This document shows positions 42,202-64,000 of a DNA stretch of 64,000 nt, piece by piece. The notes beneath the pieces are model-generated. The model did not search any database. It was given only the letters and a program-made list of their open reading frames with translations, and was not told where the DNA came from. Numbering within the stretch: the stretch's first letter is position 1; every line of letters starts with the position of its first letter. A program made the position numbers and the translations under genes. Origin of the DNA: Escherichia phage vB_Ec-M-J; the sequence record OQ718158.1; one strand, given 5' to 3'.

Positions 42202-42547
42202 TTCAACATATAGACAGGGGGAAGCTCCGCAGGGAAAGCATTGGACAGGCTTTAACATATGTTATATATGTTAAAATTCAGCCTGGACAAATGCGATCAC
42301 TAGGATTCTCCCCAGGCTAAACCCCGTAATCATATGTAGTCATAAGTAATCATATATAAACATTTAAGTAATCATTTATAATCACTGTAGTGATCAGTAG
42401 TGAGTACTAGAGTGTAATAGAGTACAGGAATGTGCACGTTTAATCAAGAACGTAGCAGTACTGATATGTCACTAAAGTAGGCAGAGGAAGTCTGCCGTAC
42501 TTTGTAGTTTCCAAGCTCCTTTTCCATTTTGCAAATTACATCAAATG

Positions 42548-42574
42548 TAATCAAAAGTAATCAAAAGTAATCAC
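42548..42574. repeat. short tandem repeat GTAATCAAAA x2.7
   Basis: AATGTAATCAAAAGTAATCAAAAGTAATCA. Confidence 0.6.
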
Positions 42575-43263
42575 GCAATGATTAGTACTGAATTATTACT
42601 TTCACCTTAATTTCAATTACCCCTTTACCCTTCGGGGTAAAATTCCATTACCCCTTGAGGCTCCAGCAAAAAGTTGGTTAGTACTCCATCCTAAATCTCG
42701 ATCCTAAAAATTTTGGAGTACCTATGAAATAAAAGTTGGATCTTCGAAATTTGAAATTTACGTTGGGACGTTTATGATTTGTGGGATATAATGATGTTTG
42801 TAGTCGGGTAGTTTTCAAGAATATCAGCACTGAATAATGAAAGAAAGCTATTGACATTATGATTCAGTACTGTATAATGTTCTACATAGGGTGATGAGTT
42901 GCTGCGAACAATTCATTTACTCTACCTCCTGTCGTGAGACAGTACAGAAAAGATAGTTCCTCCTGTGGTGGTACATCTTTTTGAACCTCATATGAAAATC
43001 GTAATAACAGTACTGATATTAACAGAATGGTGTCAGTACTGATTTTAATCTAAAGCATTATGCCACCAGCACAAGCTGGTGGATTCCCTCTAACAGTATT
43101 CAGTACTACATGATGGTCTTCATCCTCCTAGGGTAACATAGTGAGGGCTATGATGGCAGTACTGAATACTCCCTTTCAAAAGATAGATCTATGGTATAGT
43201 ACTGACGGATTTTGGGCGTAGTTACCCTGGATGGATTTTGGACGTAGATATGTCTAGCCCTCC

Positions 43264-43395
43264 AGAAGTCTGGAAGTAAAGATGGCTATCCATCTAGACG
43301 GCTAAACGGCTAGATTTCTGGATGGCTAGATGGCTAGACGTTTGGACGGCTAAACGGCTAGATGGTTACACGTCTGGAAGTATAGACGGCTAAAT
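43264..43395. repeat. iteron-like direct repeats of (C/T)GGCTA(A/G)A
   Basis: about 9 copies of GGCTAGA/GGCTAAA within 130 bp, plus repeated TCTGGAAGT. Confidence 0.6.
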
Positions 43396-44151
43396 CAAAA
43401 TTTTATTTTGTTTTTCCAATAGTTCCCCTACCGCGTGGGGATAGTTTCCCCGCAGTATCTGGAGTTAGATTTTTCTGAATCTGGAATCATTATCTTATAA
43501 ACTGGGGGCAATGTCAACGACCTGGACGGATATTTTTAAAAATTTTTTCAGTACTGAATTTTGGGCGTAACTATGCACCCGGTGGGCTTGAGTCTTTCTC
43601 GACTTGATGGAACTATTATACAGTACTGAAAAAATAAAGCAATACCCTGGAAGCAAAAAAGTTTTAATTAATTTGCTTGCTATCCTGGGCCGGACTATGG
43701 TACTATATTTCAGTACTGAGAAAGTGCGTTTACCTGCTAGGGTGCGGGAGTGTATCCTTTTTTTATATCTTGAATTTTGGGCGTAATTCCGCACCCTCTG
43801 GGGTTTCCGCTTTCTCGCGTCTATGTAGTAATTATACGCTTTTTCAGGATCAAGTCAATACCTAAAAACAAAATAATTGAAAATAATTTAACGCGTTTAA
43901 ACGGCCCGTAAAGCCCTGGAATGATTGGAATGGTGCAAATGTATAGCTTAGGTGTATTAATGCGTTAGAATGCGTCTGAGGCCGTTTTACGGGGTATAGG
44001 GATGATTTGGTGGATTGATTCAGTACTGAATGATAGTACTACTATATAGAAAGATAGTTCCCCTGGATGGTTGCAGTACTGAATGATAGTACTGAATAAT
44101 AGTTCCCCTATATAGAAAGAAAACTATTTTAAAAGTATTTGTAGAAAGTAC

Positions 44152-44179
44152 TTGCAAACTAAGTTTAACGGCGTATAAT
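44152..44179 (+). promoter_or_regulatory. class-A early promoter
   Basis: AAAGTACTTGCAA-N16-TATAATGTTTTACATC, one of about 30 near-identical copies. Confidence 0.7.
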
Positions 44180-44234
44180 GTTTTACATCGAGAGCGGGAA
44201 CACTTCCCGCTACATATTACGAGAGATTAAAACG

Positions 44235-44597
44235 ATGGCGACTCAAATCACTAAAATTATTGCTAACCTGGTTAACTTTCGCGACGAGATGAAAGATCTT
44301 CCGGCAGAAACGGTAAAAATTCACATTTCAGCTTATCGGGAACTTATTGCAATGTTACCGCTTAAGCGTGAACAATACGCCGCGACCGTGATGCTTGATG
44401 CGATGATCCATAAGATGATCGCCAGTGATTTAACGATGGTTTATCAGTATATGGGCGAAAATTTCGCGGTGTATAGTAAACCAGTACCAGGAATGGAAAG
44501 TACAGAAGTATTACACGGTTTAAATTTAAAACAAGATGCATGGGATAATATGCCTCGTTTCCTGGTATGGGCTGACAGTGGCAAGATTTACGAATAA
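44235..44597 (+). CDS. small early-type ORF (hypothetical)
   Basis: track ORF trimmed to ATG after class-A promoter and GC hairpin. Confidence 0.55.
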   Translation: MATQITKIIANLVNFRDEMKDLPAETVKIHISAYRELIAMLPLKREQYAATVMLDAMIHKMIASDLTMVYQYMGENFAVYSKPVPGMESTEVLHGLNLKQDAWDNMPRFLVWADSGKIYE

Positions 44598-44611
44598 GTT
44601 TTAAAAAGTAC

Positions 44612-44639
44612 TTGCAAACTAAGTTTAAAAGCGTATAAT
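44612..44639 (+). promoter_or_regulatory. class-A early promoter
   Basis: same consensus; hairpin at 44651..44671. Confidence 0.7.
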
Positions 44640-44691
44640 GTTTTACATCAGGTGGGGAATAGTTCCCCACTATAATTAAGAGATTAATTTC

Positions 44692-44925
44692 ATGAGTACT
44701 ATTTTAACTGTTTCTCAATCCGTTGCACTGACTGACCTATTAAACGCTTTAAGCCGTTGCACTGAGGTTGGCTTGTTTGATGTGGTAGACGTTGCACCGG
44801 ACGTTATTAATCATTTTTGTGATGCGATGGAAGAATGTAAGGAAGATGATAGCCGTATGATGGCGGTCGCCTTTGAGGAAGTACAACCAGGTGAGATCAA
44901 AGGTTTACCAGTACTGAAAAAATAG
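44692..44925 (+). CDS. small early-type ORF (hypothetical)
   Basis: behind class-A promoter and hairpin GGTGGGGAATAGTTCCCCACT. Confidence 0.55.
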   Translation: MSTILTVSQSVALTDLLNALSRCTEVGLFDVVDVAPDVINHFCDAMEECKEDDSRMMAVAFEEVQPGEIKGLPVLKK

Positions 44926-44928
44926 TAC

Positions 44929-44956
44929 TTGCAAACTAAGTTTAAAAGCGTATAAT
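44929..44956 (+). promoter_or_regulatory. class-A early promoter
   Basis: same consensus; hairpin at 44968..44988. Confidence 0.7.
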
Positions 44957-45007
44957 ACTTTCTATCAGGTGGGGAATAGTTCCCCACTATATAAGAGGAT
45001 TTAAAAA

Positions 45008-45247
45008 ATGGCTAAATCAAAAATGTTCTTAGGTCACAAAAACAAAACTCATTGGAATGTAAGCCTTTGGATTAATAACGATGAGTCATTGTACCGGTTG
45101 GCCCAGGACTTTATTAACGATAGCACTAATCGCAATGATGCGGCCCGTCATATGATGTTATTTTTAGAACAGACTGGACAAGATAAAACACCGGACGGAT
45201 TCAAATATAGCACTACTGCGATCCGTGCGGCGATGGTTGGAATGTAA
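45008..45247 (+). CDS. small early-type ORF, paralog of 47111..47350
   Basis: shared HKNKTHWNVSLWINN and C-terminal TPDGFKYSTTAIRAAMVGM. Confidence 0.65.
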   Translation: MAKSKMFLGHKNKTHWNVSLWINNDESLYRLAQDFINDSTNRNDAARHMMLFLEQTGQDKTPDGFKYSTTAIRAAMVGM

Positions 45248-45335
45248 TAGAATAGAATTTATTTAAAGTACTATTGCACGGGGATAGTACTTTATAATAG
45301 TGTTTTATTCATACACCAACGATAAGGGCAACAGC

Positions 45336-45602
45336 ATGAATATTAAGTATTTTGCGACGCGTGAACAAGCTCGGATCGCCGCACGGCAGGACGGGGCAAC
45401 GTTTAAAGATATGGGCGTACAATCGGAACGTGGTAAACGTTGGGCCATTGTAAAGCGTAGTACCGCCAGATCATTACAGTACTGGTTAGCGGCCTTAAAA
45501 AGTCCCGATAGTGTATCGCGTCGAGTGGTAGAAATAAAGCTCGACCGAAAGGGCAACCGCGTGACTGTGTACCGTACTAAAAAGATTGCAGTACTTGAAT
45601 AA
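45336..45602 (+). CDS. small early-type ORF, paralog of 57850..58245
   Basis: track ORF trimmed to ATG after AAGGGCAACAGC; shared FATREQARI...RKGNRVTVY. Confidence 0.6.
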   Translation: MNIKYFATREQARIAARQDGATFKDMGVQSERGKRWAIVKRSTARSLQYWLAALKSPDSVSRRVVEIKLDRKGNRVTVYRTKKIAVLE

Positions 45603-45609
45603 AAAGTAC

Positions 45610-45637
45610 TTGCAAACTATGTTTAATGGCGTATAAT
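45610..45637 (+). promoter_or_regulatory. class-A early promoter
   Basis: TTGCAA-N16-TATAAT then GCGGGAACACTTCCCGC hairpin. Confidence 0.7.
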
Positions 45638-45689
45638 GTTTTACATCGAGAGCGGGAACACTTCCCGCCTATAACCTGGAGTAATAAAA

Positions 45690-45920
45690 ATGACTAATAT
45701 GTATATGACTGAAGTTAAAACCGTAAAAGATACTACCACGAATAAAACTACTTACTTACAGCGGATCTGCGGTGTATGGCAACGTATCAGCAAATCAAAG
45801 TACTTTAAATTAACATCATATGCAAACCGTTCGGATTCATTCAGTACTGAAATAAAAGGTAATAAAGTACACCAATACGGCACTTATTATTATTATAGCC
45901 TGGACGCGATTGCAGTCTAA
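45690..45920 (+). CDS. small early-type ORF (hypothetical)
   Basis: behind class-A promoter and hairpin; GGAG RBS. Confidence 0.55.
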   Translation: MTNMYMTEVKTVKDTTTNKTTYLQRICGVWQRISKSKYFKLTSYANRSDSFSTEIKGNKVHQYGTYYYYSLDAIAV

Positions 45921-46201
45921 GCAGTTTACAAATCTTTACAATTGCCGGTATTGACTTATTTTGTCAGTACTGGCATAATGTATTCATTGGCAGATAAGCC
46001 GTAGCCCATAGGGTGCGGGAGTGTATCTATAGAAAAATTAGTTTAGTACAGTTACAATTGTGCACCCGGTGGGTTAGCTGTTGTCATGGGGTATATTATG
46101 CCAGTACTTGATAATGCTGTCAATACTTTTTTAATATTCAGTACTGAAAACTATTTTTAAAAAGTACTTGCAAACTATGTTTAAAGGCGTATAATGTTTT
46201 A

Positions 46202-46276
46202 CATCAGGACGGGGAACGAAATAAGTAACTTCCCGTTAAGTAGCCCAGGAGTAAGGCACACGAAAAACTCCCCTGA
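46202..46276 (+). ncRNA. candidate structured leader or small RNA, copy A
   Basis: ORF-free transcribed segment between two promoters; ATCAGG...CCTGAT closing stem plus inner ACGGG/CCCGT stem. Confidence 0.35.
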
Positions 46277-46327
46277 TAAAATAGTTTGACAATTGTTTTT
46301 AAAAGCGTATAATACTTACATCAACTA

Positions 46328-46453
46328 CTGAATGAGGGTTACAAAATGAAAACTATCACTACTACTACTTTCGTTATGGATTTTTCTGAATTGAATGAGG
46401 GTTGCAAAGCGAAAACTGTCACTAATACTACTTTCGTTATGGATTTTTCTGAA
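46328..46453 (+). repeat. 63-bp tandem duplication spanning the start of gene 46346
   Basis: TGAATGAGGGTT(A/G)CAAA...TTTCGTTATGGATTTTTCTGAAT occurs twice. Confidence 0.7.
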
Positions 46454-47020
46454 TTGAACGCAGAACAAAAAACGTCAGCTATCGAACTGGTTCGGGAACG
46501 TGAAAAAAACTTAAACGATGATTATTTTTCTGAAAGTGAAATTGAATACTATAAAGAAACAGTACTACCGGAATATGGCATTAATGACGCTGAAATACAA
46601 TTCAGTGGTTTTTGGTCCCAGGGTGACGGTGCATCAATCAGTACTGACCACGTTGACGCAGTGAAGTTTTTACGCAAGGTAAGAGCATTAACTAAATATC
46701 GCTCAATCCGTCACTTGCTGAATGAAGATGATTTGGCGATGAGTGTAAAGCGTTCTCACTCCCACTACTCGCATGAGAATACTGTAAGCGGGTACATTGA
46801 ATCGGCTTACACTGATTTAACCGCAAAACAAGAAACGTTAGTTAATGAGCTTGAGGAACTACTCACTGAAACTATTCGTGAATTATCCCGCAAGTTGTAC
46901 CGTGATTTAGAGAATGCATATGAGGATCAATTCACTACTGAAAACATTACGGCACTGATTGAGGGTAACGAATATCAATTCAATGTTATTAATGGCGTAG
47001 TAGAATCAATCGAATATTAA
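46346..47020 (+). CDS. hypothetical protein with 21-aa N-terminal tandem duplication
   Basis: 224-aa track ORF; 63-bp direct duplication spans the start region. Confidence 0.6.
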   Translation: MKTITTTTFVMDFSELNEGCKAKTVTNTTFVMDFSELNAEQKTSAIELVREREKNLNDDYFSESEIEYYKETVLPEYGINDAEIQFSGFWSQGDGASISTDHVDAVKFLRKVRALTKYRSIRHLLNEDDLAMSVKRSHSHYSHENTVSGYIESAYTDLTAKQETLVNELEELLTETIRELSRKLYRDLENAYEDQFTTENITALIEGNEYQFNVINGVVESIEY

Positions 47021-47110
47021 TTTAAAAAGTACTTGCAAACTAAGTTTAAAGGCGTATAATACTTTATATCGAGGCGGGGAGTGGTTCCCCGCTCAAACGA
47101 GGATTAAAAA

Positions 47111-47350
47111 ATGGCTAGTACTAAAACTTACAACGGGCACAAAAACAAAACTCATTGGAATGTTTCCTTATGGATTAATAACGGTGAGTCATTGTATCGG
47201 CTTGCTCAAAGTTGCATCGCACAAAGTAGAACTAAAGATATTGCTGCGGAATGTATGTACCGCAGATTAAAAGCCAACGGTACTACTACAACGCCGGACG
47301 GATTCAAGTATAGCACTACGGCGATCCGTGCTGCAATGGTTGGAATGTAA
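47111..47350 (+). CDS. small early-type ORF, paralog of 45008..45247
   Basis: near-identical N- and C-terminal blocks; own promoter and hairpin. Confidence 0.65.
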   Translation: MASTKTYNGHKNKTHWNVSLWINNGESLYRLAQSCIAQSRTKDIAAECMYRRLKANGTTTTPDGFKYSTTAIRAAMVGM

Positions 47351-47408
47351 TATTCAGTACTGTAACAATGGCGGGGAATGGTTCCCGCCTTTATTGAGGG
47401 TTTATCTA

Positions 47409-47669
47409 ATGAGTAAAGTAATTAGCTATACAGTACTAAGCAAGTCATTATCTATTAGCCAGTGCACCGATGGTTATTGGCTATTTGATGAAACGCGTGG
47501 AATGAATTTAGCTATGCGTGCAAAAACTGCTGAGGCGGCGTATCTTGAGGCACTGGAATACTACCAGGAACGTTTAACGGAAGTAGAAGAAGATTATAAA
47601 AGCCTCAAAGCGAAAGTAGATCATTTCGTCGGTCAATTCATCGAGGAAGACGACGACAAACAATATTGA
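47409..47669 (+). CDS. small early-type ORF (hypothetical)
   Basis: track ORF trimmed to ATG after GAGGG; acidic C-terminus. Confidence 0.5.
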   Translation: MSKVISYTVLSKSLSISQCTDGYWLFDETRGMNLAMRAKTAEAAYLEALEYYQERLTEVEEDYKSLKAKVDHFVGQFIEEDDDKQY

Positions 47670-47755
47670 AAAAGTACTTGCAATTAGTTTTAAGTACTGT
47701 ATAATGGTTTACATCAAAGGGAGAAATGGTTCTCCCTGGTAATGAGGAAAATAAA

Positions 47756-47977
47756 ATGGCTAATATCACTACTCTTTCCCAACTGGAAGCACTGGTTAAA
47801 TCTATGCGGGAACATGCCGACAAAATCGGCGTACAAGATCCAGCCGTTTGCTTCTGCGACGAATTGAATGATGATACCCTGGTAATAGCAGAAGTCCAGG
47901 ACGTTTCTAACTATTCCTCGCGTTACACTGGCGGCGTAGCAAATAAAGGTGACTTCTGTTTATACCTTACAAAATAA
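47756..47977 (+). CDS. small early-type ORF (hypothetical)
   Basis: track ORF trimmed to ATG after promoter and hairpin. Confidence 0.55.
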   Translation: MANITTLSQLEALVKSMREHADKIGVQDPAVCFCDELNDDTLVIAEVQDVSNYSSRYTGGVANKGDFCLYLTK

Positions 47978-48220
47978 CAACGCGGGGAGATAATAACTCC
48001 CCGTTACTTTTTCAGTACTGAATCATTTAATAGACGGATCTCGGCACCCGGTGGGTTAGTGACTGTTTCGTCTTGATGTAGTAATTATGCCAGTACTGGA
48101 TGCACTTGTCAACAATTATTTTTCAAATACTTTTTATTAAAATACTTGCAATTAGTTTTTAAACGCGTATAATGTTTTGCATAGGGGGAGCGGTTCCCCT
48201 GGTAACTAAGGAATAAGAAA

Positions 48221-48457
48221 ATGGTCGAACAAATCAAATCAACGTCTTCGAATGTAACGGGAACGGTAGCACACTTTACTAGTGATGAATCGCGGGGCGT
48301 TCCCTATTGTGCTGTACATGTAAACACTGAGGGTAACTACTGGTTTACGGTTTACGGATCATATTCATTTGGACGGCCAGGGCATCAAAAAATTCTGGAT
48401 AAAGTACAACCAACGGGTAAAAATATCACTGCCGAAATGTTTTATAAAAAATCATAA
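48221..48457 (+). CDS. small early-type ORF (hypothetical)
   Basis: behind promoter and hairpin; AAGGAATAAG RBS. Confidence 0.55.
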   Translation: MVEQIKSTSSNVTGTVAHFTSDESRGVPYCAVHVNTEGNYWFTVYGSYSFGRPGHQKILDKVQPTGKNITAEMFYKKS

Positions 48458-48541
48458 AGTACTTGCAATTAGTTTTTAGTACTGTATAATATTTTACATC
48501 GCAAGGGGGAGCGGTTCCCCCTGGTAACTAAGGATAATCAA

Positions 48542-48841
48542 ATGAAAATTGCAATCATCGCCCTGGCTTTATCTGTTTCCTCTTTCGCTGTTAATGCGTC
48601 ATTAGATGTAAGTAGTGAAAAATTCATTCAGTGCACTGTTGCAATGACCGATGAAAGAACTGGCGAGATTGTATTAAAGGATTTAGAGATCCAGCCGGAA
48701 GCATTTAAAAACGGGCCGTTCCATGAAGAAGACGAAAAAGGTAGCACGACAATTTATTACGATGCCAGTACTAAACGCGGTTCGGTCACTGTAATGGATA
48801 CTGAGAAAGTAACTCATACTGGCGTTATTAATTGCCGTTGA
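48542..48841 (+). CDS. secreted small protein (signal peptide)
   Basis: N-terminus MKIAIIALALSVSSFAVNA; own promoter and hairpin. Confidence 0.6.
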   Translation: MKIAIIALALSVSSFAVNASLDVSSEKFIQCTVAMTDERTGEIVLKDLEIQPEAFKNGPFHEEDEKGSTTIYYDASTKRGSVTVMDTEKVTHTGVINCR

Positions 48842-48862
48842 TAGATACTACGGGGTAACATC

Positions 48863-49093
48863 ATGACTAAGCGAATTGTTTTACTTAACGAAAGCAGTAC
48901 TACACAACTACTTAACGCCGTGCATTATGATATTGAAACGAGCGTTAATCTTATCAGTACTGTCGTACTGTTGGACACTGGAAAGGTCGCCAATGATAAA
49001 GCGATTGCAGGTATATTAACGGATCTTGAGCCTGGTAGCAGTGCACCCATAACGTTAAATGGTAAAGTGTTTAATATTTTACTCACTGATTAA
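48863..49093 (+). CDS. small ORF (hypothetical)
   Basis: 76-aa track ORF co-directional with neighbours. Confidence 0.5.
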   Translation: MTKRIVLLNESSTTQLLNAVHYDIETSVNLISTVVLLDTGKVANDKAIAGILTDLEPGSSAPITLNGKVFNILLTD

Positions 49094-49327
49094 GTACATA
49101 GCCCACCTGGTGGGCTTTTTTTGTTTTTGTAGTATCGTAGTACTGAGATACTTTGAAAATAGTTTTAAAAAAGTAGTTGACATTACCGCAGAAAAGCGTA
49201 GAATGTATTACATCAAGACGGGGAGCACTAAGTAGACCGCCAGTAAGTCGAACGAAAAACTGGACACGTCGAGAAAACTTTGATACACTAATAAACGTAA
49301 ACTAAACTTTAATTGAGGATTTATAAA

Positions 49328-49810
49328 ATGGCTAATGTAAAATCATTCATCAAAGCACTGGTAGCAAATGAAACTAACGTCGCGGCTGAGATCCTGGCTG
49401 AACTGGATAACGATACCATGAAAGCGGTACGCAATAATTTTAACATCGCGTACAGTACTGCGAAAGAACTACAAGCAAATAAAGCGGCAGAAATTGAAGC
49501 GGCAAAGGCTGCCCGTGAAGCAGAACTACAAGCAACAATCGAAAGTATTCAGGCGGCAGTAGTTGGATTGGATCTGGAAGTAGTTACAGAGATGGCACAA
49601 AAAGCCCTGGCGGTTAAGTATGGGGAAGACAAGCCAGAAGTAAAAGCCAAAAAATGGATTCAGGAACGCGTAGCGGTAGTACTGGATAATGGGGAAGAAT
49701 ATCTGATTCCGGTGCGTGGTAACTGTATTGCGGTAGTACTGGACGCGATTAACGCCAGCGGTATGACTCGCGAGGAATGGATCGAATCTCATCGCAAAGT
49801 TGAAGCATAA
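49328..49810 (+). CDS. hypothetical protein (161 aa), Ala/Glu-rich
   Basis: track ORF trimmed to ATG after GAGGA; followed by strong terminator. Confidence 0.6.
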   Translation: MANVKSFIKALVANETNVAAEILAELDNDTMKAVRNNFNIAYSTAKELQANKAAEIEAAKAAREAELQATIESIQAAVVGLDLEVVTEMAQKALAVKYGEDKPEVKAKKWIQERVAVVLDNGEEYLIPVRGNCIAVVLDAINASGMTREEWIESHRKVEA

Positions 49811-49831
49811 CAATTAAAGTACTGAATCACT

Positions 49832-49857
49832 AGCCCACTGTATAAGTGGGCTTTTTT
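49832..49857 (+). terminator. rho-independent terminator
   Basis: AGCCCACTGTATAAGTGGGCT then TTTTTT. Confidence 0.7.
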
Positions 49858-50094
49858 GTGTTTATCGTTTACCAGGCCACCAGCACCGCCTAGAAACGAT
49901 TCTAACGTATTAAACTGTTTATCTGATGCATTGCCCTAGCTGGTGGCGTGAAGGTCGTTAGAATGCGATTGAGAGCGTTTAAAGTATTTTGCAAAAAGTA
50001 ATAAAAAGTACTTGCACGATTAAGAGATTAGCGTATAATGTTTTACATCGAGAGGGGGAAACGGTTCTCCTTCCAAATCAAAGGAATCAAAACA

Positions 50095-50322
50095 ATGGCT
50101 ATCGTAATCACTCGCGTAACTGGTACTACTGGCAATTCTTCTACTGTTGCTGTAATTACTAATAAGAAAGGTGCGGAATTGCATTTTGCAATGGATAAAT
50201 GGGCCGTTAATGAGTTCGGTCAGTGGGCAAGTGTAGCATACATTGAAACCTATCAAGTGCCGTCGATTAGTTTAACTGATTTGGGCGTTGAGCGTATCCT
50301 TTGCCTTGATGAATTAAATTAA
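50095..50322 (+). CDS. small early-type ORF (hypothetical)
   Basis: track ORF trimmed to ATG after promoter and hairpin. Confidence 0.55.
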   Translation: MAIVITRVTGTTGNSSTVAVITNKKGAELHFAMDKWAVNEFGQWASVAYIETYQVPSISLTDLGVERILCLDELN

Positions 50323-50407
50323 AAAAGTACTTGCAAAGTAAATCGAATAAAGTATAATACATTACATCAAGGGGAGAAATGGTTCTCCCCACTACAAGGA
50401 AACTAAA

Positions 50408-50551: not shown

Positions 50552-50569
50552 AATATTATCACAGTACTA

Positions 50570-50598
50570 TTGACATAGTTTGATAGTACTGGCATAAT
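50570..50598 (+). promoter_or_regulatory. class-B promoter (TTGACA-N17-CATAAT flanked by AGTACT)
   Basis: CAGTACTATTGACATAGTTTGATAGTACTGGCATAAT; repeated at 50864, about 53706 and about 61900. Confidence 0.65.
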
Positions 50599-50631
50599 AG
50601 ATTTTATCAAGACAACTAAGAGGAAACAATA

Positions 50632-51930: not shown

Positions 51931-51935
51931 TTAAT

Positions 51936-56474: not shown

Positions 56475-56488
56475 AAATAATTGAAAAA

Positions 56489-56656: not shown

Positions 56657-56729
56657 ATCAGGACGGGGAACGAAACAAGTAACCCCGTTAAGTAGTCCAG
56701 GAGTAAGACATACGAAAAACTCCCCTGAT
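56657..56729 (+). ncRNA. candidate structured leader or small RNA, copy B
   Basis: about 90% identical to copy A, with stem-preserving differences. Confidence 0.35.
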
Positions 56730-56798
56730 AAAATAGTTTGACAATAGAAAGTAAACGAGTATAATACTTACATCAACCACTGATAAGGAAACATTAAA

Positions 56799-57074
56799 AT
56801 GCGGATTCTACTGACAGCTAACGAAATCGAACAAGTACTGACTACTAACCTGGAAGACTGGAAACGTGAAGCAGATATCCAGGCGGTTCAATGGCTTAAT
56901 GATAAGTTAACGCCGGATGATTTAAGTAAGATTGTAGATCCTCAATTCTACGAAGATATTCACGACACCGCGTTAAGCGTCGAGGATGTACTTGATAAGC
57001 ACTACATTGATACTGATTTACATGTTTACGGTCGTAAAAACTTTATCACTATTCACGACATTTACAATACTTAA
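56799..57074 (+). CDS. small acidic early-type ORF
   Basis: downstream of duplicated dual-promoter cassette. Confidence 0.55.
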   Translation: MRILLTANEIEQVLTTNLEDWKREADIQAVQWLNDKLTPDDLSKIVDPQFYEDIHDTALSVEDVLDKHYIDTDLHVYGRKNFITIHDIYNT

Positions 57075-57160
57075 GTATTGACAAAGTATCTTAGTACTGT
57101 ATAATAGTTTACATCGAGAGGGGAAACGGTTCCCCTCCTAACAAAGAGAGAGAAATAAAA

Positions 57161-57343
57161 ATGGCTAAGTGCACTATCTGCAAGAAAGAAATAGTATTAG
57201 TTCCAAGTGCCCGTGAACGTGCCGCTCGGTTTGGTGGCAAAGCGTCAGACTATACAAAAATGTTTACTGCCCATACAGCTTGCCAGGTAGCAAAACGTTC
57301 ACAAGAAAGCGTAGAATTAATGCGTAAACTTTCCAAAAAATAA
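57161..57343 (+). CDS. small early-type ORF with Cys pairs
   Basis: CTICKK...HTACQ; behind promoter and hairpin. Confidence 0.55.
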   Translation: MAKCTICKKEIVLVPSARERAARFGGKASDYTKMFTAHTACQVAKRSQESVELMRKLSKK

Positions 57344-57430
57344 GTATTGACAAAGTATCTTAGTACTGTATAATAGTTTACATCAAGCGAGGGGAATGGT
57401 TCCCCTCCTAACAAAGAGAGAGAAATAAAA

Positions 57431-57754
57431 ATGGCTATGATCCTTACCCAGAAAGTAGAACTGAAAATTGTAACCTCCTTTGACATTAACGTTAATCGGT
57501 GGACTGATTCACACGGCAATACTTACCACTCTTGCTACGTGTCTGCGTTAATTGGCGACCGCTGGGAAGACCTGGGACACGAAACCTTTACATACGGTTA
57601 CGGTACACAAGGCGAATACACGGGCTTGGAGATCATTAAAGAAACCGTTATAGGTTTCAACCCGAAAGAAAAAGTTATTCACCGCATCGAGGAAGAGATC
57701 AACAAAGAAATAACAGTTCGATACAACGATGTAAAACGTAAGAAAGACATGTAA
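57431..57754 (+). CDS. small early-type ORF, paralog of 50934..51257
   Basis: shared RWTDSHGNTYHSCYVS and VKRKKDM; upstream region duplicated from 57161 gene. Confidence 0.65.
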   Translation: MAMILTQKVELKIVTSFDINVNRWTDSHGNTYHSCYVSALIGDRWEDLGHETFTYGYGTQGEYTGLEIIKETVIGFNPKEKVIHRIEEEINKEITVRYNDVKRKKDM

Positions 57755-57849
57755 TAGAATCCATTTAAAGTACTATTTGACATTGCCCAGATAGTACTTT
57801 ATAATAGACTCTAACTTGTAGTACTAACTCAACTAATAGGATGTATACC

Positions 57850-58245
57850 ATGATTACTAAATTCTACGCTACCCGTGAAGCTGCCCGTATTGTTGCACGC
57901 GAGGAAGGAGCAGCATTTAAAGACATGGGCAAAGATGCACCGAAAGGTCAACGCTGGGCCGTACAGTTCAAAGAAATCTCTGATATTGTGAATTCACCTG
58001 AGCCAGTACTGACAGCAGCAGAACTAAAACGAGCGGATATGCTGGCGGCAATACTTGACGCACAAGATGAGTTTATCGCTGATTCTGATATCAAAGTACA
58101 GGTAAACCACACCGCATGGACTCACGCGGATCACCTGGCAAACCTTAAGCGTCCAAGTGAACTGATTCGCAACCAGAAAGAGATCCGACACGACCGTAAG
58201 GGTAATCGTGTAACAGTATACAGTAAACGCCGCCAGGTTATCTAA
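57850..58245 (+). CDS. small early-type ORF, paralog of 45336..45602
   Basis: start set by paralog alignment; shared FYATREAARI...RKGNRVTVY; terminator follows. Confidence 0.6.
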   Translation: MITKFYATREAARIVAREEGAAFKDMGKDAPKGQRWAVQFKEISDIVNSPEPVLTAAELKRADMLAAILDAQDEFIADSDIKVQVNHTAWTHADHLANLKRPSELIRNQKEIRHDRKGNRVTVYSKRRQVI

Positions 58246-58267
58246 TAACTTGCAGTACTAACAACAC

Positions 58268-58292
58268 GGCGGGATCAGTTCCCGCCTTTTTT
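58268..58292 (+). terminator. rho-independent terminator
   Basis: GGCGGGATCAGTTCCCGCC then TTTTTT. Confidence 0.7.
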
Positions 58293-58306
58293 ATAGGACA
58301 AACAAC

Positions 58307-58561
58307 ATGATTAAGGTTCAACTATCAAACGATAATGTATTACGGGTACACTATAAAGCACCTCAGAGAATCATCACAAAGGCCGTACAGCTTGCTAATG
58401 AGTTTATTAATGGTAACCTATTACCTAGGAAGTTAAGCAACGGGAAACTGCGTGTAATCGACGTGGACACTAACAACAGGATAGTAATCGAGAACACAGG
58501 AAAGATAAACCTTTATGAGCATCAACAATACAATAAGAAAATAAAACTAATATCACGTTGA
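58307..58561 (+). CDS. small ORF (hypothetical)
   Basis: 84-aa track ORF; AGGA RBS. Confidence 0.5.
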   Translation: MIKVQLSNDNVLRVHYKAPQRIITKAVQLANEFINGNLLPRKLSNGKLRVIDVDTNNRIVIENTGKINLYEHQQYNKKIKLISR

Positions 58562-58614
58562 CAGTACTCAATTGTTTTAGTACTATGTACACATACCAAC
58601 ACGGGAGAAACAAA

Positions 58615-58833
58615 ATGAAATTATCTAAAATCGAAAAGAAAACTATTGATGAAGCAGTTAAGCACGGTTATACCTTTCGTAATGATTCACATTTTACCAA
58701 TTTTCAACAAGGGTATCGTACTATTAAAAAACTAATTGACAAAGGTTTATTAGTTGAAGTCAATAACGGTAACGGTATCGAGTATCAACCAACACAGGAC
58801 GCATTTTATTTTAAGAAATATAATATTATCTAA
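58615..58833 (+). CDS. small ORF, promoter-duplicate partner of 58891..59133
   Basis: track ORF trimmed to ATG; identical upstream TTGACA promoter block. Confidence 0.5.
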   Translation: MKLSKIEKKTIDEAVKHGYTFRNDSHFTNFQQGYRTIKKLIDKGLLVEVNNGNGIEYQPTQDAFYFKKYNII

Positions 58834-58890
58834 TTGACAGTACTCAAATGTTTTAGTACTATATGTACATACCAACACGGGGGAAACAAA

Positions 58891-59133
58891 ATGATTACTT
58901 TAGAAAAACGTATCAAAGAAACTACATCGCTGGTGGAACTGTTAACAGTACTCAAATGTAAAACAACACCATTCAGCACGCCGGACTTTATTAATATGGT
59001 TGATGTTAATGGTCGCTATCGTATCACGGTCGAACAAGGAGCGGCGAAAGTATTCAGTACTAAAAACACTAAGGAAGTGATCCACGCCGTTAATGTTAAA
59101 AAAGTAGTTGCCATTGATAGTAAAGTACTGTAA
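58891..59133 (+). CDS. small ORF, promoter-duplicate partner of 58615..58833
   Basis: track ORF trimmed to ATG after GGGGGAAAC. Confidence 0.5.
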   Translation: MITLEKRIKETTSLVELLTVLKCKTTPFSTPDFINMVDVNGRYRITVEQGAAKVFSTKNTKEVIHAVNVKKVVAIDSKVL

Positions 59134-59164
59134 TATAGTTTCATTAACTCAAGGAGAACATGCA

Positions 59165-59749
59165 ATGCGTAATTATACTAAATTCATCCGTACACTGTCA
59201 GAAATGGAAACCAACAAAGAGATCCTTTCAGCTTGTCGGTTAGCTGGACTGGAGATCATCGGTGCTGGTTCTTCCCGTATAGTATTCGCTTTAAATGATC
59301 GGTTAGTGATTAAGGTCGCGAATTGTGATGCGGGTGTAGAACAAAATGAAACTGAATGTAAGGTATGGAATTTTTTAGACTATGACCGCCCTCAGTTGAA
59401 ACAGTACTTTGCAAAGGTGCATATGCATTTATGCGATCCTGATAATATGTTTATCGTTATGGATCGGTTGAGTACTGCAAGTAAAGGCAGTGTGAAGCAC
59501 GTTAACGCGTGCAATGAATTAAAGTACAATATTAAACGTAATGCAATTGAACGCCAGCACCGCTTTGCTGATGCACTACAACACGTCGATGATACATTAT
59601 CAACACTAACGATAAGAGATATCAGAAAACAGAATATCGGCCAGGATCGTAATGGCCTTATTAAAGTACTTGATTACGGTTTAACCTGCAATATCTGGAA
59701 TCAGTACTATAAAAAGCGTGATGTGGCAGCAAGTAAGGTAACACGATAA
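59165..59749 (+). CDS. mini protein-kinase-like protein (putative)
   Basis: IGAGSSRIVF (Gly loop), VIKVA (Lys), IRDIRKQNIG (catalytic loop), KVLDYG (DFG-like); AAGGAG RBS. Confidence 0.5.
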   Translation: MRNYTKFIRTLSEMETNKEILSACRLAGLEIIGAGSSRIVFALNDRLVIKVANCDAGVEQNETECKVWNFLDYDRPQLKQYFAKVHMHLCDPDNMFIVMDRLSTASKGSVKHVNACNELKYNIKRNAIERQHRFADALQHVDDTLSTLTIRDIRKQNIGQDRNGLIKVLDYGLTCNIWNQYYKKRDVAASKVTR

Positions 59750-59763
59750 AAAAGATTAAAAAA

Positions 59764-59796
59764 GGGATTGACTCCGGTCAGTCCCTTTGCTATTAT
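59764..59796 (+). terminator. fused terminator-promoter module, UCCG-loop variant
   Basis: identical to module at 56489. Confidence 0.6.
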
Positions 59797-59973
59797 ATAT
59801 TCATTGAGAGATAACTCACTGACCCATAGGGTGCGGAAGTGTATCTATTATATAAGTATTCAGTACTGAAAACTATTTTAAAAAAAAGTACTTGCATTGT
59901 ACTTAGAATCAAGTATAATGTTTTATATCGAGAGGGGGAAATGGTTCTCCCTGGTATATTAAGGAATAAAATC

Positions 59974-60195
59974 ATGACTACAATGACTTGCATTTACGCT
60001 TCCAATCTTCTGAATGATGCGGCCTTTAATGTTGATTCAGAATATCAATGTTATCGGGATGAAAATAAAAAAGTTTTTGTAGTTGATAATAATGGTTTCC
60101 ATATTGAATTACAATCCGGCTTCACTGGCGTTGATGGTAAATCAGTATGGGGCGTACAGGATGATAAAGGTACATATCATTTTAAACGTAATTAA
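59974..60195 (+). CDS. small early-type ORF (hypothetical)
   Basis: track ORF trimmed to ATG after promoter and hairpin. Confidence 0.55.
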   Translation: MTTMTCIYASNLLNDAAFNVDSEYQCYRDENKKVFVVDNNGFHIELQSGFTGVDGKSVWGVQDDKGTYHFKRN

Positions 60196-60278
60196 GTATT
60201 GACAAAGTATCTTAGTACTGTATAATAGTTTACATCAAGGGGAGAATAGTTCTCCCCGATACTAAAAGGAATAAAATC

Positions 60279-60686
60279 ATGACTACTACTAATCAAGCTC
60301 GGTCCATCGCCAACGATAAAAATCATGCTGAAATGGTCGCTGGTTACATTGAAGCTATGCAATTCAGTACTGTACACAATGAGAACGGCGAATACCTGGA
60401 AGATTATGAATTATCAGAGCAAGCCCATCAAGCGGCAGTGATTGCATGTTCACGTTTCCTTGCTGTACATGGTGAAGATATGGAAACAGTACAAAAACAC
60501 CATAATCCTGATTATACTTATAGTCATGCGGGTCATGATCTCTTTCTTACTCGCGAAGGTCACGGCACTGGTTTTTGGGATCGTGATATCGGTCACTATG
60601 ATGATATATTCACTAAGTACTGCGAAGAAATCAACGTTTGCGATCCCTATGTAGGCGATGATAATCTAATCTATATGGGCGAATAA
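60279..60686 (+). CDS. small early-type ORF, His/Asp-rich
   Basis: 135-aa track ORF behind promoter and hairpin. Confidence 0.55.
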   Translation: MTTTNQARSIANDKNHAEMVAGYIEAMQFSTVHNENGEYLEDYELSEQAHQAAVIACSRFLAVHGEDMETVQKHHNPDYTYSHAGHDLFLTREGHGTGFWDRDIGHYDDIFTKYCEEINVCDPYVGDDNLIYMGE

Positions 60687-60773
60687 AAGTATTTGACAAA
60701 GTATATCAGTACTGTATAATAGTTTACATCAAGGGGAGAATAGTTCTCCCCACCAATAAAAGGAAACAAAATT

Positions 60774-61046
60774 ATGTCCAGCTACTCCGCTACTATGATC
60801 ATTAAAGATATGAACGGTAATCCTACTTCTGCTGGTGGATCATTTGGAAACATTAATTTAGATGGTCGGTTATCCATGCAATCAGCCATCGATGCAGCGA
60901 AAGAAGTTTTTAAGAATGAATGTACTGTAAGTAAGCTGGATTATATGGGATTCGCTATCGAAAAAACTAATCGTTTTGTGAACTACAAAAATCCACTGAT
61001 GATCGATACTAACCTGAAAGCAAACGAAGTGGGGTACTTATTATGA
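60774..61046 (+). CDS. small early-type ORF (hypothetical)
   Basis: behind promoter and hairpin. Confidence 0.55.
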   Translation: MSSYSATMIIKDMNGNPTSAGGSFGNINLDGRLSMQSAIDAAKEVFKNECTVSKLDYMGFAIEKTNRFVNYKNPLMIDTNLKANEVGYLL

Positions 61047-61234
61047 CAGTAGAAGAAGTTAAAAAAGTACTGGCAGTACTACGCTATCATAATCATTGCA
61101 AGGTGAAGAATGATCCTGATTATCTCGATTCATCCCTGGAAGAGGATACACTACAAGCAATAAGCCATATGCAAAAAATGCTTAAGCGTATGACCGAAAA
61201 GAATAGGCCGGACTATATCGGAAATAAAATTTAA
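61043..61234 (+). CDS. small ORF, translationally coupled
   Basis: ATGA overlap with upstream gene. Confidence 0.5.
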   Translation: MTVEEVKKVLAVLRYHNHCKVKNDPDYLDSSLEEDTLQAISHMQKMLKRMTEKNRPDYIGNKI

Positions 61235-61321
61235 AAAGTACTTGCATTGTAGTTAGATTAACGTATAATGTTTTATATCGAGAGGGGGAAATGGTTTCCC
61301 CTCAAGTCCAGGAGATACACC

Positions 61322-61585
61322 ATGAACACTATCGAAATCACTATCAATGCACACGTATACGACAACGTAGTACTGCAAACTACTATGACCGCTAATGATA
61401 CCAGTACTTTGCGGAATACTGTTATTAGTGCCGTATGTGCTGCAATCGGTGATGTCGCCCTGGAAAATGCAGAACACATCAACAACGGTTTCACTATGTG
61501 CAAACGTGATAACGCAAAACATATCATCGTAGAAGGTTACGGCGGTGTAGAATTTAATGTTTATATGAAAAAAGTACTTGCATAA
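61322..61585 (+). CDS. small early-type ORF (hypothetical)
   Basis: track ORF trimmed to ATG after promoter and hairpin. Confidence 0.55.
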   Translation: MNTIEITINAHVYDNVVLQTTMTANDTSTLRNTVISAVCAAIGDVALENAEHINNGFTMCKRDNAKHIIVEGYGGVEFNVYMKKVLA

Positions 61586-61652
61586 TAACTAAAACAAAGT
61601 ATAATGTTTTGCATAGGGGGAGATATCCTCCCCCACTAAAAGGAGTAATAAA

Positions 61653-61877
61653 ATGGCTAACTTTGATGAACTGATGCGGGAAGTAGCTAACCTGGCAGAA
61701 GAGAAGAAATCATTCGATTCTATCTATAACACCGCTCACCGTGATTCAGTACTGGCATGTAACCAGGATCAAAAAGATGAACTAATCGCCACCTATCATG
61801 AAGCATGGAAGTACTACCGACAATGGGAGAAAGAAGAAAGTGAGTCTACCATCGAAGGTATCAATAATCTAATCTAA
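61653..61877 (+). CDS. small early-type ORF (hypothetical)
   Basis: behind promoter and hairpin; AAGGAG RBS. Confidence 0.55.
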   Translation: MANFDELMREVANLAEEKKSFDSIYNTAHRDSVLACNQDQKDELIATYHEAWKYYRQWEKEESESTIEGINNLI

Positions 61878-61953
61878 AAGTTTTATTTCAGTACTATTGA
61901 CATAGCTTGATAGTACTGATGTAATAACTTTACTAACTACAAGGGGAAACATA

Positions 61954-62211
61954 ATGGATCAATTCACACAATATCGGGTAAATCCTCAATCTATGGCCTA
62001 CGTAGAAGACCATAAAACGTTACCAGTACTGCAACCAGTTAAAGGCCGTATCTATCGTGGCCTTGCCTGGGATACGGCCCAGGATGGATATAAAACCGTC
62101 GCCGTGGGGATGTATTGCGGGAATGGTGAATGGTTTGATCCTAACAATCCGATTGCACTTGACAGTACTGAAAAAATGAAATGGGCCGACTACATCGAAG
62201 ATATTTCATAA
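61954..62211 (+). CDS. small early-type ORF (hypothetical)
   Basis: behind class-B promoter. Confidence 0.55.
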   Translation: MDQFTQYRVNPQSMAYVEDHKTLPVLQPVKGRIYRGLAWDTAQDGYKTVAVGMYCGNGEWFDPNNPIALDSTEKMKWADYIEDIS

Positions 62212-62301
62212 AAACTATTTGACAGTACTAACCAGTAATGTATAATGTTTTACATAGAGCGGGGGAATAGTTCTCCCGCCAATAGTTTGGAGTTAAACAT
62301 T

Positions 62302-62502
62302 ATGTCTATCGCTATCGCCCTGGTTGAAGTACTGAAAGAAGCTAAAGCCAACCTTATCGATGTACAGATTAAGGAATTGCAAAACGGCTTAATCGGCTGT
62401 ACTTGTACCGCTGGTGGAGCGGCAGACTATCGAGAACACGAATCACTCGAATCACTGGTTCGGTATCTTACCATGATCGTTGATGATTGGAGAATCATCT
62501 AA
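62302..62502 (+). CDS. small early-type ORF (hypothetical)
   Basis: track ORF trimmed to ATG after promoter and hairpin. Confidence 0.5.
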   Translation: MSIAIALVEVLKEAKANLIDVQIKELQNGLIGCTCTAGGAADYREHESLESLVRYLTMIVDDWRII

Positions 62503-62519
62503 CAAAAAAGAATAAAAAA

Positions 62520-62552
62520 GGGATTGACTCCGGTCAGTCCCTTTGCTATTAT
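62520..62552 (+). terminator. fused terminator-promoter module, UCCG-loop variant
   Basis: identical to module at 56489. Confidence 0.6.
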
Positions 62553-62746
62553 ATACGCATAGACAAAAACTAGCCCACAGGGTGCATAAGTGTATCCAAA
62601 ATATATAGTTAATAACGGTGAGTAACTATCTGCTGGTGGAGTGAAAACTATTAATAAAAAAGTATTGACAAAGTATATCAGTACTGCAATAATGTATCTC
62701 GTAGGGCGGCAATGGTGCGACGGCCCACAAAGTTAGGAGCTTCAAA

Positions 62747-63079
62747 ATGACTACTTCAATCGCTATCGTTAAAGCTTTCATCCGTACTAATGTTTCCTCT
62801 GTATTCATCGACGGCCTCGACCGTAACGTAGAATACTCAATCATTATCGCACAAACGGCAAACGGTTCTCGGTACATCCTGAATGATAGTGAAGCAAATC
62901 ACTACTACTTCACTAAAGCCACTGGCTTTAAACGCATCGATGCTGATGTAGTATACGCTAAGATGAATAAGCTGGTAGATAAGATTAACGCTAAAGGTAC
63001 TATAGATTTACAGTACTGGACCGAAACCGATCCAGAATATGGATCTCACCGCTACCTGAATCCAGGTATTAAAATGTAA
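62747..63079 (+). CDS. small early-type ORF (hypothetical)
   Basis: 110-aa track ORF; AGGAG RBS. Confidence 0.55.
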   Translation: MTTSIAIVKAFIRTNVSSVFIDGLDRNVEYSIIIAQTANGSRYILNDSEANHYYFTKATGFKRIDADVVYAKMNKLVDKINAKGTIDLQYWTETDPEYGSHRYLNPGIKM

Positions 63080-63168
63080 AAAGTACTTGCATAGTACTTA
63101 GATTCATGTATAATGTTTTACATAGAGAGGGGGAAATGGTTCTCCCTCCTAAATTAAGGAGTTTTATC

Positions 63169-63570
63169 ATGACCTTCTCAATCACTTCCTTCGCTGACGT
63201 TTTAGTACTGGCTCGGACTTTTGGTAAAGATGCACTGGAGTACGCTGTAAGTAATGGCACTATCCAACCGGAACAGTGCCGCATCATTGGAAACTGCAAA
63301 CGTTGGGCGGTATCCAATACTATTGCACTGGAAAACTTCAACGATGGCAACAATGAATATTCTGTTGATGCAGTATTCGAAGCCGTAGACCTGGGCGGTA
63401 TCTATAACACTAACCTGAATGATGTGCGTATCGTTCGCACGGGGTTCGGTGCTTATGATGTATCTATCCGTGAAGCTATGGACAATGGATACATTAGCAA
63501 GGACTTACTTGCTCACATCATGCAGCTATGGACGGAACGTAACGAAGCACGCACTATCTTAGGGCTGTAA
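63169..63570 (+). CDS. small early-type ORF (hypothetical)
   Basis: track ORF trimmed to ATG after promoter and hairpin. Confidence 0.55.
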   Translation: MTFSITSFADVLVLARTFGKDALEYAVSNGTIQPEQCRIIGNCKRWAVSNTIALENFNDGNNEYSVDAVFEAVDLGGIYNTNLNDVRIVRTGFGAYDVSIREAMDNGYISKDLLAHIMQLWTERNEARTILGL

Positions 63571-63638
63571 GCGTTACACATCACTAAACATCATAGGCCG
63601 CTCTCTAGCGGCCTTAACTATATCAGGAGGGCATACAT

Positions 63639-63848
63639 ATGTTCTATACAGTATATAGCGTTATAGGCACTATTGCAGGCGTACATGATAACGTCGATAG
63701 TGCTATGCGTACAGTACTGCAACAGGTTCCACTTAAGCCTAAGACCATTAAGCAGATGACAGCACGACTAACCAGGGCGACGGCTGGCGTGGAAGTATGG
63801 CAGGACTATGGGGATACACAGATAATCGTAAGCGTAACGAAGGATTAA
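63639..63848 (+). CDS. small ORF (hypothetical)
   Basis: 69-aa track ORF; AGGAGG RBS; hairpin upstream. Confidence 0.5.
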   Translation: MFYTVYSVIGTIAGVHDNVDSAMRTVLQQVPLKPKTIKQMTARLTRATAGVEVWQDYGDTQIIVSVTKD

Positions 63849-64000
63849 TGCGTAAAAGGATTTAGTACTGAATCATAAAAAAGTCAAGGTATTTTTAAAC
63901 TTCAGCGTTAAAAAAATGCATAGGTAATCCCTTGACTTTTATGAATAAAAAGGGATTGGACTATGGCAAAATGCGTAGGGGGCTAAAGGGCGGGTAACCT

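Follow-up and report, generated by a model that had tools for sequence, protein, structure and literature searches.

AGTACT, a hyperabundant palindrome of an Asteriusvirus-type jumbo coliphage and its relatives, is very probably a selected DNA-level recognition signal

We analyzed a 64,000-nucleotide stretch of Escherichia phage vB_Ec-M-J (sequence record OQ718158.1; from here on referred to as the window), which represents the final 64 kb of the genome; this phage is a jumbo coliphage of the Asteriusvirus type, and its relatives include PBECO4, 121Q, G17, and fEgEco12. Our subject is the palindromic hexamer AGTACT, which a preliminary description of positions 42400-63900 had proposed to be strongly enriched in regulatory DNA. 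Positions 1-42475 of the window make up the unique right arm of the genome and align with 314-353.6 kb of fEgEco12, a phage in which the termini and the terminal repeat have been determined experimentally (PMC13070987). The remainder aligns with both ends of fEgEco12, and the interval 42400-63900 is therefore the direct terminal repeat (Table 1). The terminal repeat is the early region of the phage and consists of small open reading frames (ORFs) on the + strand, each with its own promoter; the early genes are all directed inward from the left end, like those in the early regions of T5 and T7.

The window contains 288 copies of AGTACT, compared with 22.5 ± 5 (maximum, 32) in dinucleotide-preserving shuffles, which is a 13-fold excess, and AGTACT ranks first among hexamers in the window, above all A/T-rich words. 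The flanked form CAGTACTG occurs 61 times compared with 1.07 ± 0.98, an enrichment of 57-86-fold depending on the control. Within the interval 42400-63900, we counted 144 copies, where 6.4 (Markov-1) or 6.9 (composition) are expected, and the ~42 kb of the window outside it contain another 144; the preliminary description, which had placed the excess far above chance, thus understated it. Promoter cassettes are duplicated within the interval, where contexts group into families with 15 and 13 members. Merging of sites with at least 70% similarity in their ±15-nt flanks left 102 distinct contexts in the interval and 232 in the whole window, with observed/expected ratios (O/E) of 14.7 and 10.7, respectively. 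Hence, the ratio does not fall to near 1 after correction for composition and promoter duplication, which is the result that the preliminary description had named as speaking against its claim. Further, the excess extends over the whole genome (354 kb) of fEgEco12, with 977 copies of AGTACT compared with 119 expected (8.2-fold) and 221 copies of CAGTACTG compared with 3.8 expected (58-fold); the 10-kb bins of this genome contain 11-68 copies each, and none falls below 11.

With 197-198 of the 288 sites in the window located inside ORFs, and distributed over the three frames as 85/42/70, we compared coding and non-coding DNA. The 198 ORF-internal sites exceed the numbers obtained when synonymous codons were shuffled within genes (61 ± 6) and when the order of codons was shuffled (29 ± 5), and the density inside ORFs is 2.5-8 sites/kb compared with ~0.35/kb expected. 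Because sites occur in all frames and exceed both types of shuffle by 3-7-fold, the enrichment is not due to protein coding. The view that AGTACT is a feature of regulatory DNA holds within the terminal repeat, where we found ~12 sites/kb between ORFs and ~4.4/kb within them (70 of the 144 sites in the interval are inside ORFs), but not elsewhere: outside the repeat of fEgEco12, the densities are 2.47/kb in coding and 3.11/kb in non-coding DNA. There, the density is flat along genes and is alike for + and - strand genes, and the motif is found in 76 of the 79 genes with 300 or more codons.

Despite this broad distribution, a subset of sites in the terminal repeat has a fixed relation to σ70-type early promoters. 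Class A promoters, of which there are ~13 copies in the window (e.g. at 44607, 44924, 45605, 46163, 47028, 50326, 52952, and 56617), have the form AAAAGTACTTGCAA-N16-TATAAT, in which the last base of AGTACT doubles as the first T of the -35 hexamer (AGTAC-TTGCAA). Class B promoters have the general form CAGTACTATTGACA-N9-GATAGTACTGGCATAAT, with pairs of sites at 50563/50585, 50857/50879, and 53699/53721 and variants at 47673/47693, 48458/48478, and 57769/57793. In the class B example in Table 1, the paired sites flank the -35 hexamer and the spacer at a distance of 22 nt from each other, and the 3' TG of the motif gives an extended -10. Both placements agree with the preliminary description. 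In the promoters of the terminal repeat generally, the motif takes one of two positions, across the upstream edge of the -35 hexamer or with its end 0-3 nt ahead of the -10 hexamer, and the sites are separated by 20-23 nt when both are present. Altogether, 17 sites in the interval abut a -35 and 20 abut a -10 hexamer (37 of 144). The promoters annotated by the authors of the GAP32 genome read AGTACT-TTGACA-N13-AGTACT-TTATAAT, with the same 22-nt spacing, and the fixed promoter placement is therefore conserved between Asteriusvirus and Mimasvirus. Thus, a dyad-symmetric site at a fixed position of RNA polymerase contact and conservation of this placement in diverged relatives, as expected of an operator, are both seen. 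The suggestion that AGTACT is the binding site of a regulator fits these 37 sites, with a two-site layout kept in Mimasvirus, but does not cover the remaining ones. We note that, between 44598 and 63850, nearly all small early ORFs are preceded by a σ70-type promoter, a GC-rich stem-loop in the 5'-untranslated region (e.g. GGGGAATAGTTCCCC), and a Shine-Dalgarno sequence and begin with ATG.

AGTACT also forms the stems of hairpins behind the RCC1-propeller paralogues and their neighbors. Eight related hairpins (at 18605, 20495, 21699, 24092, 26608, 29047, 33823, and 35020) were detected; one of them is given in Table 1. They have the makeup of intrinsic terminators, i.e. a GC-containing inverted repeat and a T-tract 3' of a gene, but account for only ~13 of the 288 sites. 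The terminator stems claimed in the preliminary description therefore exist, although they lie at 18.6-35.0 kb and not in the interval to which it had assigned them. The propeller genes themselves form a tandem array of ~14 RCC1-like β-propeller paralogues (370-400 amino acids) on the - strand of the window (20519-37202); every gene of the array has an AGTACT-stem terminator and a TATAGTATAAT promoter-like element of its own.

Table 1. Positions of AGTACT-bearing elements, Chi sites, and repeats in the window
Feature	Position	Strand	Basis or remark
Direct terminal repeat (~21-21.5 kb), complete right-hand copy	42476..64000	+	Alignment to fEgEco12 1-20993 and 353741-374733
Class A early promoter, example: AAAAGTACTTGCAA-N16-TATAAT	44598..44640	+	Sequence, classification, independent σ70 scan
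Class B early promoter, example: CAGTACT-A-TTGACA-N9-GAT-AGTACTG-GCATAAT	50560..50600	+	Sequence, classification, independent σ70 scan
Intrinsic-terminator hairpin with AGTACT stem: GCCAGTACT-TG-AGTACTGGC followed by TTTTCTTTTT	24091..24110	-	Sequence
Largely non-coding block across the physical genome end (~42476)	42202..44177	.	18 AGTACT, many as CAGTACTGA
Iteron-like 8/24/32-nt repeats	43284-43392	.	Within the non-coding block
Chi sites	43063-43082, 49877, 49939, 54214, 55674, 56574, 58929, 60831, 62410, 62632; also 9718, 23288-24202		Window
Back-to-back Chi pair: CCACCAGC-ACAA-GCTGGTGG	43063/43075		~590 nt from the physical end

To determine how individual sites are maintained, we measured their retention in BLAST alignments to fEgEco12, using hexamers of the same composition as the control. 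In JP4 (86% identity), 82-83% of the aligned AGTACT sites are retained compared with 57% of control hexamers (p = 9e-13); the corresponding values are 32-37% compared with 17% in RaK2 (70% identity; p = 1e-4) and 30-31% compared with 15% in CBB (69% identity; p = 0.006). These alignments show that individual AGTACT sites are under purifying selection. Most sites turn over between genera while the density is held, which is the pattern expected of many weakly selected sites that act by number. The flanking bases vary independently of each other in fEgEco12, in which the 221 copies of CAGTACTG compare with 203 expected from the single-flank frequencies, and the half-site preference can be written as (C/A/T, rarely G)AGT|ACT. 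In all five phages sampled, which represent four genera, G at position -1 is rare (6-9%), and the favored base shifts from C in Asteriusvirus and Alcyoneusvirus to A or C in Mimasvirus and Eneladusvirus. Independent half-sites and a graded, drifting flank resemble the site of a dimeric binding protein more than that of a strict enzyme. Outside the terminal repeat, the spacing of sites is near-Poisson (coefficient of variation, 1.16), sites rarely lie within 30 nt of each other, and their distances show no helical periodicity. Sites that are mostly solitary and near-randomly spaced are not RNA hairpin stems.

The range of the enrichment was assessed by comparing observed with expected counts in genome samples. 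AGTACT is overrepresented in RaK2 (Alcyoneusvirus; 119 observed/16.9 expected), in GAP32 and CBB (Mimasvirus; 253/16.7 and 112/16.8, respectively), and in Serratia phage BF (Eneladusvirus; 176/13.5), and an enrichment of 7-15-fold is thus common to the four genera Asteriusvirus, Alcyoneusvirus, Mimasvirus, and Eneladusvirus. By contrast, the motif is depleted in PA5oct, a distant Pseudomonas relative (3/16.6), in T4 (4/10.2), in the phi92-like coliphage PD06 (0/12; p = 6e-6), and in a 100-kb sample of Escherichia coli K-12 (6/23.2; p = 2.5e-5). The motif is therefore characteristic of the RaK2-like clade of enterobacterial phages, and its density in phage DNA is ~46 times that in host DNA (2.8 compared with 0.06 sites/kb). 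The motif is not mentioned in the literature searched on Asteriusvirus, RaK2, GAP32, CBB, and PA5oct, a search that did not cover the GAP32 genome paper, and the enrichment has apparently not been described previously in these phages.

The abundance of AGTACT stands against a severe loss of other palindromes. In the 354 kb of fEgEco12, 25 palindromic hexamers, for each of which 11-37 copies are expected, do not occur at all; each of them contains four or six G/C (e.g. GGATCC, CTGCAG, GAGCTC, and CCATGG). AGTACT is the extreme opposite outlier among palindromes, and GTGCAC (2.3-3.6-fold) is the sole other enriched one. The restriction avoidance that the preliminary description had considered would appear as underrepresentation of AGTACT relative to composition, and its 13-fold excess in the window points in the opposite direction. 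As regards DNA modification, which the preliminary description had also raised as a possibility, fEgEco12 encodes two orphan methyltransferases. One is a C5 enzyme of 286 amino acids (279943-280803) that matches the catalytic domain of DNMT3A/3B over its full length (E = 1e-23), and does so better than it matches bacterial M.HhaI or M.HaeIII; homologues with ~50% identity occur in phi92/rV5-like coliphages, including the AGTACT-free PD06. The similarity to Dnmt3 suggests CpG as its target, and DNA of RaK2 has been reported to be methylated at CpG (PMC3622015). On these grounds, the C5 enzyme was rejected as the cognate enzyme of AGTACT. The other enzyme belongs to the Dam family (PF05869, g162); its gene is syntenic in Asteriusvirus, Mimasvirus, and Eneladusvirus together with an upstream gene (g161), and searches of Pfam, PHROGs, and the PDB returned no informative relatives of either product. 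The gene g161, located outside the window, is the sole candidate for the reader and is connected with the motif through this synteny. The Dam-family enzyme is the only remaining methyltransferase candidate for AGTACT.

One part of the fEgEco12 genome, outside the window, departs from the general pattern. A block at ~26-38 kb includes 8.6 kb without AGTACT, a gap that is conserved in JP4 (~20,000-28,000), and contains in this gap 46 copies of AGTACA, on the coding strand only, compared with 0 of TGTACT. In the ORFs at 26.3-38.3 kb, AGTACA occurs 54 times compared with 24 ± 4 in synonymous shuffles, evenly over the frames (18/18/18), and its complement TGTACT occurs once compared with 3.2 ± 1.6. 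A strand-specific half-signal, (C)AGTAC, may therefore matter. Small proteins that are paralogues of one another and share an SEEE(Y/F)FQxSLV motif are encoded in this block. E. coli Chi (GCTGGTGG) is also strongly overrepresented in fEgEco12: it occurs 24 times on the + strand compared with 1.3 expected and 12 times as its complement compared with 1.0. Of the 24, 10 are within the 21-kb terminal repeat, in the orientation that halts RecBCD coming in from the right end. The enrichment of Chi may protect the genome ends against RecBCD.

Taken together, we consider AGTACT to be very probably a selected DNA-level recognition signal. In the interpretation that we favor, and to which we assign a probability of about one-half, it is a selectively maintained, hyperabundant palindromic site that is read by a dimeric phage protein and serves as an operator in early promoters and as a genome mark elsewhere. 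We infer the existence and nature of the reader, as well as the direction of its regulatory effect, from the properties of the sites: it would be a dyad-symmetric protein encoded by the clade, either a DNA-binding protein or a modifying enzyme plus a reader, and it would act at two layers. The first would be the uniform ~2.5 sites/kb over all genes and both strands, which would act by density and mark or organize the phage DNA. The second would be the sites within the σ70 early promoters of the terminal repeat; because these sites overlap RNA polymerase contacts, their occupancy would switch early transcription, most simply off. Repression, i.e. early shut-off, is the simplest reading of the promoter sites, and activation from approximately -40 is an alternative. 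It is also conceivable, although we regard it as doubtful, that the palindrome is a sequence-encoded "self" mark by which phage proteins tell the 350-kb phage chromosome from host DNA. Such a mark would steer transcription shut-off, nuclease sparing, compaction, or replication to phage DNA, would take the functional place that modified bases have in T-even phages or Chi has in bacteria, and would make the promoter-embedded copies an early-to-middle switch.

Several observations weigh against a dimeric reader of this kind. No DNA-binding Pfam domain was detected in 92 ORFs of the window, and the annotated "regulators" elsewhere in fEgEco12 have no recognizable fold by Pfam, PHROGs, and PDB sequence searches. 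Within the terminal repeat, a repressor or operator role explains only about one in four sites, and it explains hardly any outside it. Further, a purely dyad-symmetric reader does not predict the strand-specific AGTACA block. Finally, the extreme purge of other palindromes implies that the DNA is exposed to restriction; ~1000 AGTACT sites, which the neighbors of the phage avoid, would then need site-specific protection, and this favors, indirectly, a modification component.

Such a modification component is central to a different explanation, which may coexist with a dimeric reader and which we view as a minority possibility to be taken seriously: an orphan phage methyltransferase, with the Dam-family g162 product as the candidate, would methylate AGTACT and protect it against ScaI-type restriction, and sites would be kept or created either because the mark is useful or through the methyl-directed biased repair that Elhai suggested for HIP1. 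In favor of this explanation, two orphan methyltransferases are encoded by the phages, the Dam-family gene keeps its place across three genera, and the motif behaves like HIP1: it is hyperabundant, occurs in every frame, is conserved more than expected under neutrality, and has orphan methyltransferases at its side (PMC5861425, PMC4390886); moreover, the avoidance of AGTACT by other enterobacterial phages and E. coli implies a real restriction pressure that these phages must neutralize. Yet the Dam-family enzyme is without a solved relative, the C5 enzyme is Dnmt3-like, with CpG methylation in RaK2 (PMC3622015) and a homologue in PD06, and neither graded flanks nor fixed promoter positions are expected of a strict enzyme site. 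Biased repair also predicts depleted neighbors, but AGTATT and AATACT occur at 1.4-1.6 times expectation; because of this, and because the effect is far too large, VSP-type biased repair was rejected as the sole cause. It seems improbable that the functional unit is instead the strand-specific pentamer AGTAC, acting as a Chi-like nuclease attenuator or as a priming or other directional signal, with AGTACT as its cheapest placement on two strands. Consistent with this idea, CAGTAC has the highest O/E among all hexamers (9.4), the 26-38-kb block of fEgEco12 carries AGTACA on the + strand only and in three frames, with the - strand form depleted, and the 15-18-fold accumulation of host Chi shows that nuclease-attenuating signals are selected. 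Against it, the enrichment is 8-fold for the palindrome but only ~1.5-2-fold for AGTAC[ACG] and [CGT]GTACT, which are symmetric outside the AGTACA block, and the annotation of the phage includes no AddAB or RecBCD-like enzyme. Primases, moreover, normally use trinucleotide sites, for which enrichment is not needed.

The remaining candidates fare worse. A protein of the enterobacterial host, such as the nucleoid-occlusion factor SlmA, is very unlikely to be the reader. The consensus site of SlmA is GTGAGTACTCAC, with AGTACT at its center, so that the two are identical over the central six bases, and the enrichment is confined to phages of Enterobacterales and is missing from the Pseudomonas relative PA5oct. 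However, the flank that SlmA prefers (G at -1, C at +6, and GTG/CAC outer flanks) is the least used in every phage sampled, only 6 of the 977 sites in fEgEco12 read GAGTACTC, and T4 and phi92-like phages, which have the same hosts, are depleted in AGTACT; with flanks opposite to the consensus and depletion in these phages, SlmA and other host factors were rejected. We find it yet harder to credit an RNA-level element in which self-pairing of AGUACU would create terminator or regulatory hairpins. The eight terminator hairpins of the propeller array do have stems made of the motif, but they arose with one paralogue array, and solitary sites show a dyad-symmetric flank preference; near-Poisson spacing genome-wide and the scarcity of neighbors within 30 nt rule out a hairpin role for the bulk of the sites. 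Finally, the chance is negligible that the excess is artefactual and stems from base composition, from codon usage, or from the repetition of promoter and paralogue cassettes. The promoter cassettes are indeed duplicated, but the excess withstands dinucleotide, synonymous-codon, and codon-order shuffles as well as de-duplication of contexts, which together rule out this explanation, and it recurs in independently sequenced genomes of four genera.

Other features of the window were noted in the course of this analysis. The ~2-kb non-coding block, for which the preliminary description had estimated about 15 copies of AGTACT and in which we counted somewhat more (Table 1), also extends across the terminal-repeat boundary. 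Short tandem or iteron-like arrays lie within it at 42326-42396, 42540-42573, and 43284-43392; they consist of GTAATCAT-type 10/22-nt repeats, 3.4 copies of ATCAAAAGTA, and CTAGACGG-type 8/24/32-nt repeats and are candidate terminase or replication-initiation sites. Upstream of this block, on the + strand, a second paralogue array of ~20 ORFs (59-70 amino acids) is arranged head to tail at 37439-42201. Megablast searches with positions 42400-50400 returned matches beyond Asteriusvirus, at 80-90% identity, in Phapecoctavirus, Justusliebigvirus, Vequintavirinae, and some records labeled "Campylobacter phage," which suggests that early cassettes are exchanged between unrelated coliphage groups or that records are mislabeled. 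Pfam searches of the window ORFs identified a ParE-like toxin domain, a DksA/TraR-type zinc finger, a GNAT acetyltransferase, a T4 DenV-type pyrimidine-dimer glycosylase, and a STAND/AAA NTPase in addition to the RCC1 propellers; judging by these domains, the products other than the propellers may have host-takeover or anti-defense functions.

Phages usually lose short palindromes under restriction, but this clade keeps ~1000 copies of one that its hosts and competitors avoid. This implies a previously undiscovered genome-wide system of protein-DNA recognition in some of the largest known coliphages, together with a means of surviving ScaI-type restriction, and could inform the 30-year-old question of the purpose of HIP-type elements. 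In phage therapy and engineering, recoding or synthesizing such genomes regardless of the motif might be harmful. With a short motif and culturable phages, the system is tractable.

Each of several known systems shares some properties of AGTACT. The promoter-early stem-loop (PeSL) cassettes of T4-type phages, reportedly described by Arbiol, Comeau, and Krisch in 2010, have the same modular layout as the terminal repeat, with a near-identical σ70 promoter and a GC-rich 5' stem-loop before small early ORFs; PeSLs are not known to carry a genome-wide palindrome, and they explain the duplication of cassettes but not the ORF-internal AGTACT sites. Classical phage operators in σ70 promoters resemble AGTACT in their dyad symmetry, their fixed position relative to the -35 and -10 hexamers, and the presence of two sites 20-23 bp apart. 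In mycobacteriophages, one repressor site recurs many times along the genome in the form of stoperators, and AGTACT likewise has many genome-wide copies, but it is 5-10 times denser, non-oriented, and mostly ORF-internal without a promoter nearby. Chi, DUS/USS, and KOPS are, like AGTACT, words overrepresented genome-wide that set an organism's own DNA apart; further, inverted pairs of DUS/USS often serve as terminator stems, which parallels the AGTACT stems behind the propeller genes. However, these words are asymmetric, orientation-dependent, and cellular, with known readers, whereas AGTACT is palindromic and viral.

The closest known system is HIP1 (Highly Iterated Palindrome 1, GCGATCGC) of cyanobacteria, a short palindrome in 15-300-fold excess that occurs in coding and non-coding DNA and in all frames, and whose orthologous sites are conserved beyond neutral controls; orphan DNA methyltransferases are present in the genome (PMC5861425, PMC4390886). 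AGTACT shares with HIP1 the hyperabundance, taken as an excess of ~15-fold or more for the octamer, the independence of reading frame, and the conservation, and tests of a similar type had similar outcomes for both. It differs in being an AT-rich hexamer of a virus clade rather than a GC-rich octamer of a cyanobacterial phylum, in being wired into promoters at fixed positions, and in being depleted from the genome of the host. As it is neither GCGATCGC nor a GC-rich alternate in a cyanobacterial genome, AGTACT is a functional analogue of HIP1 and not HIP1 proper.

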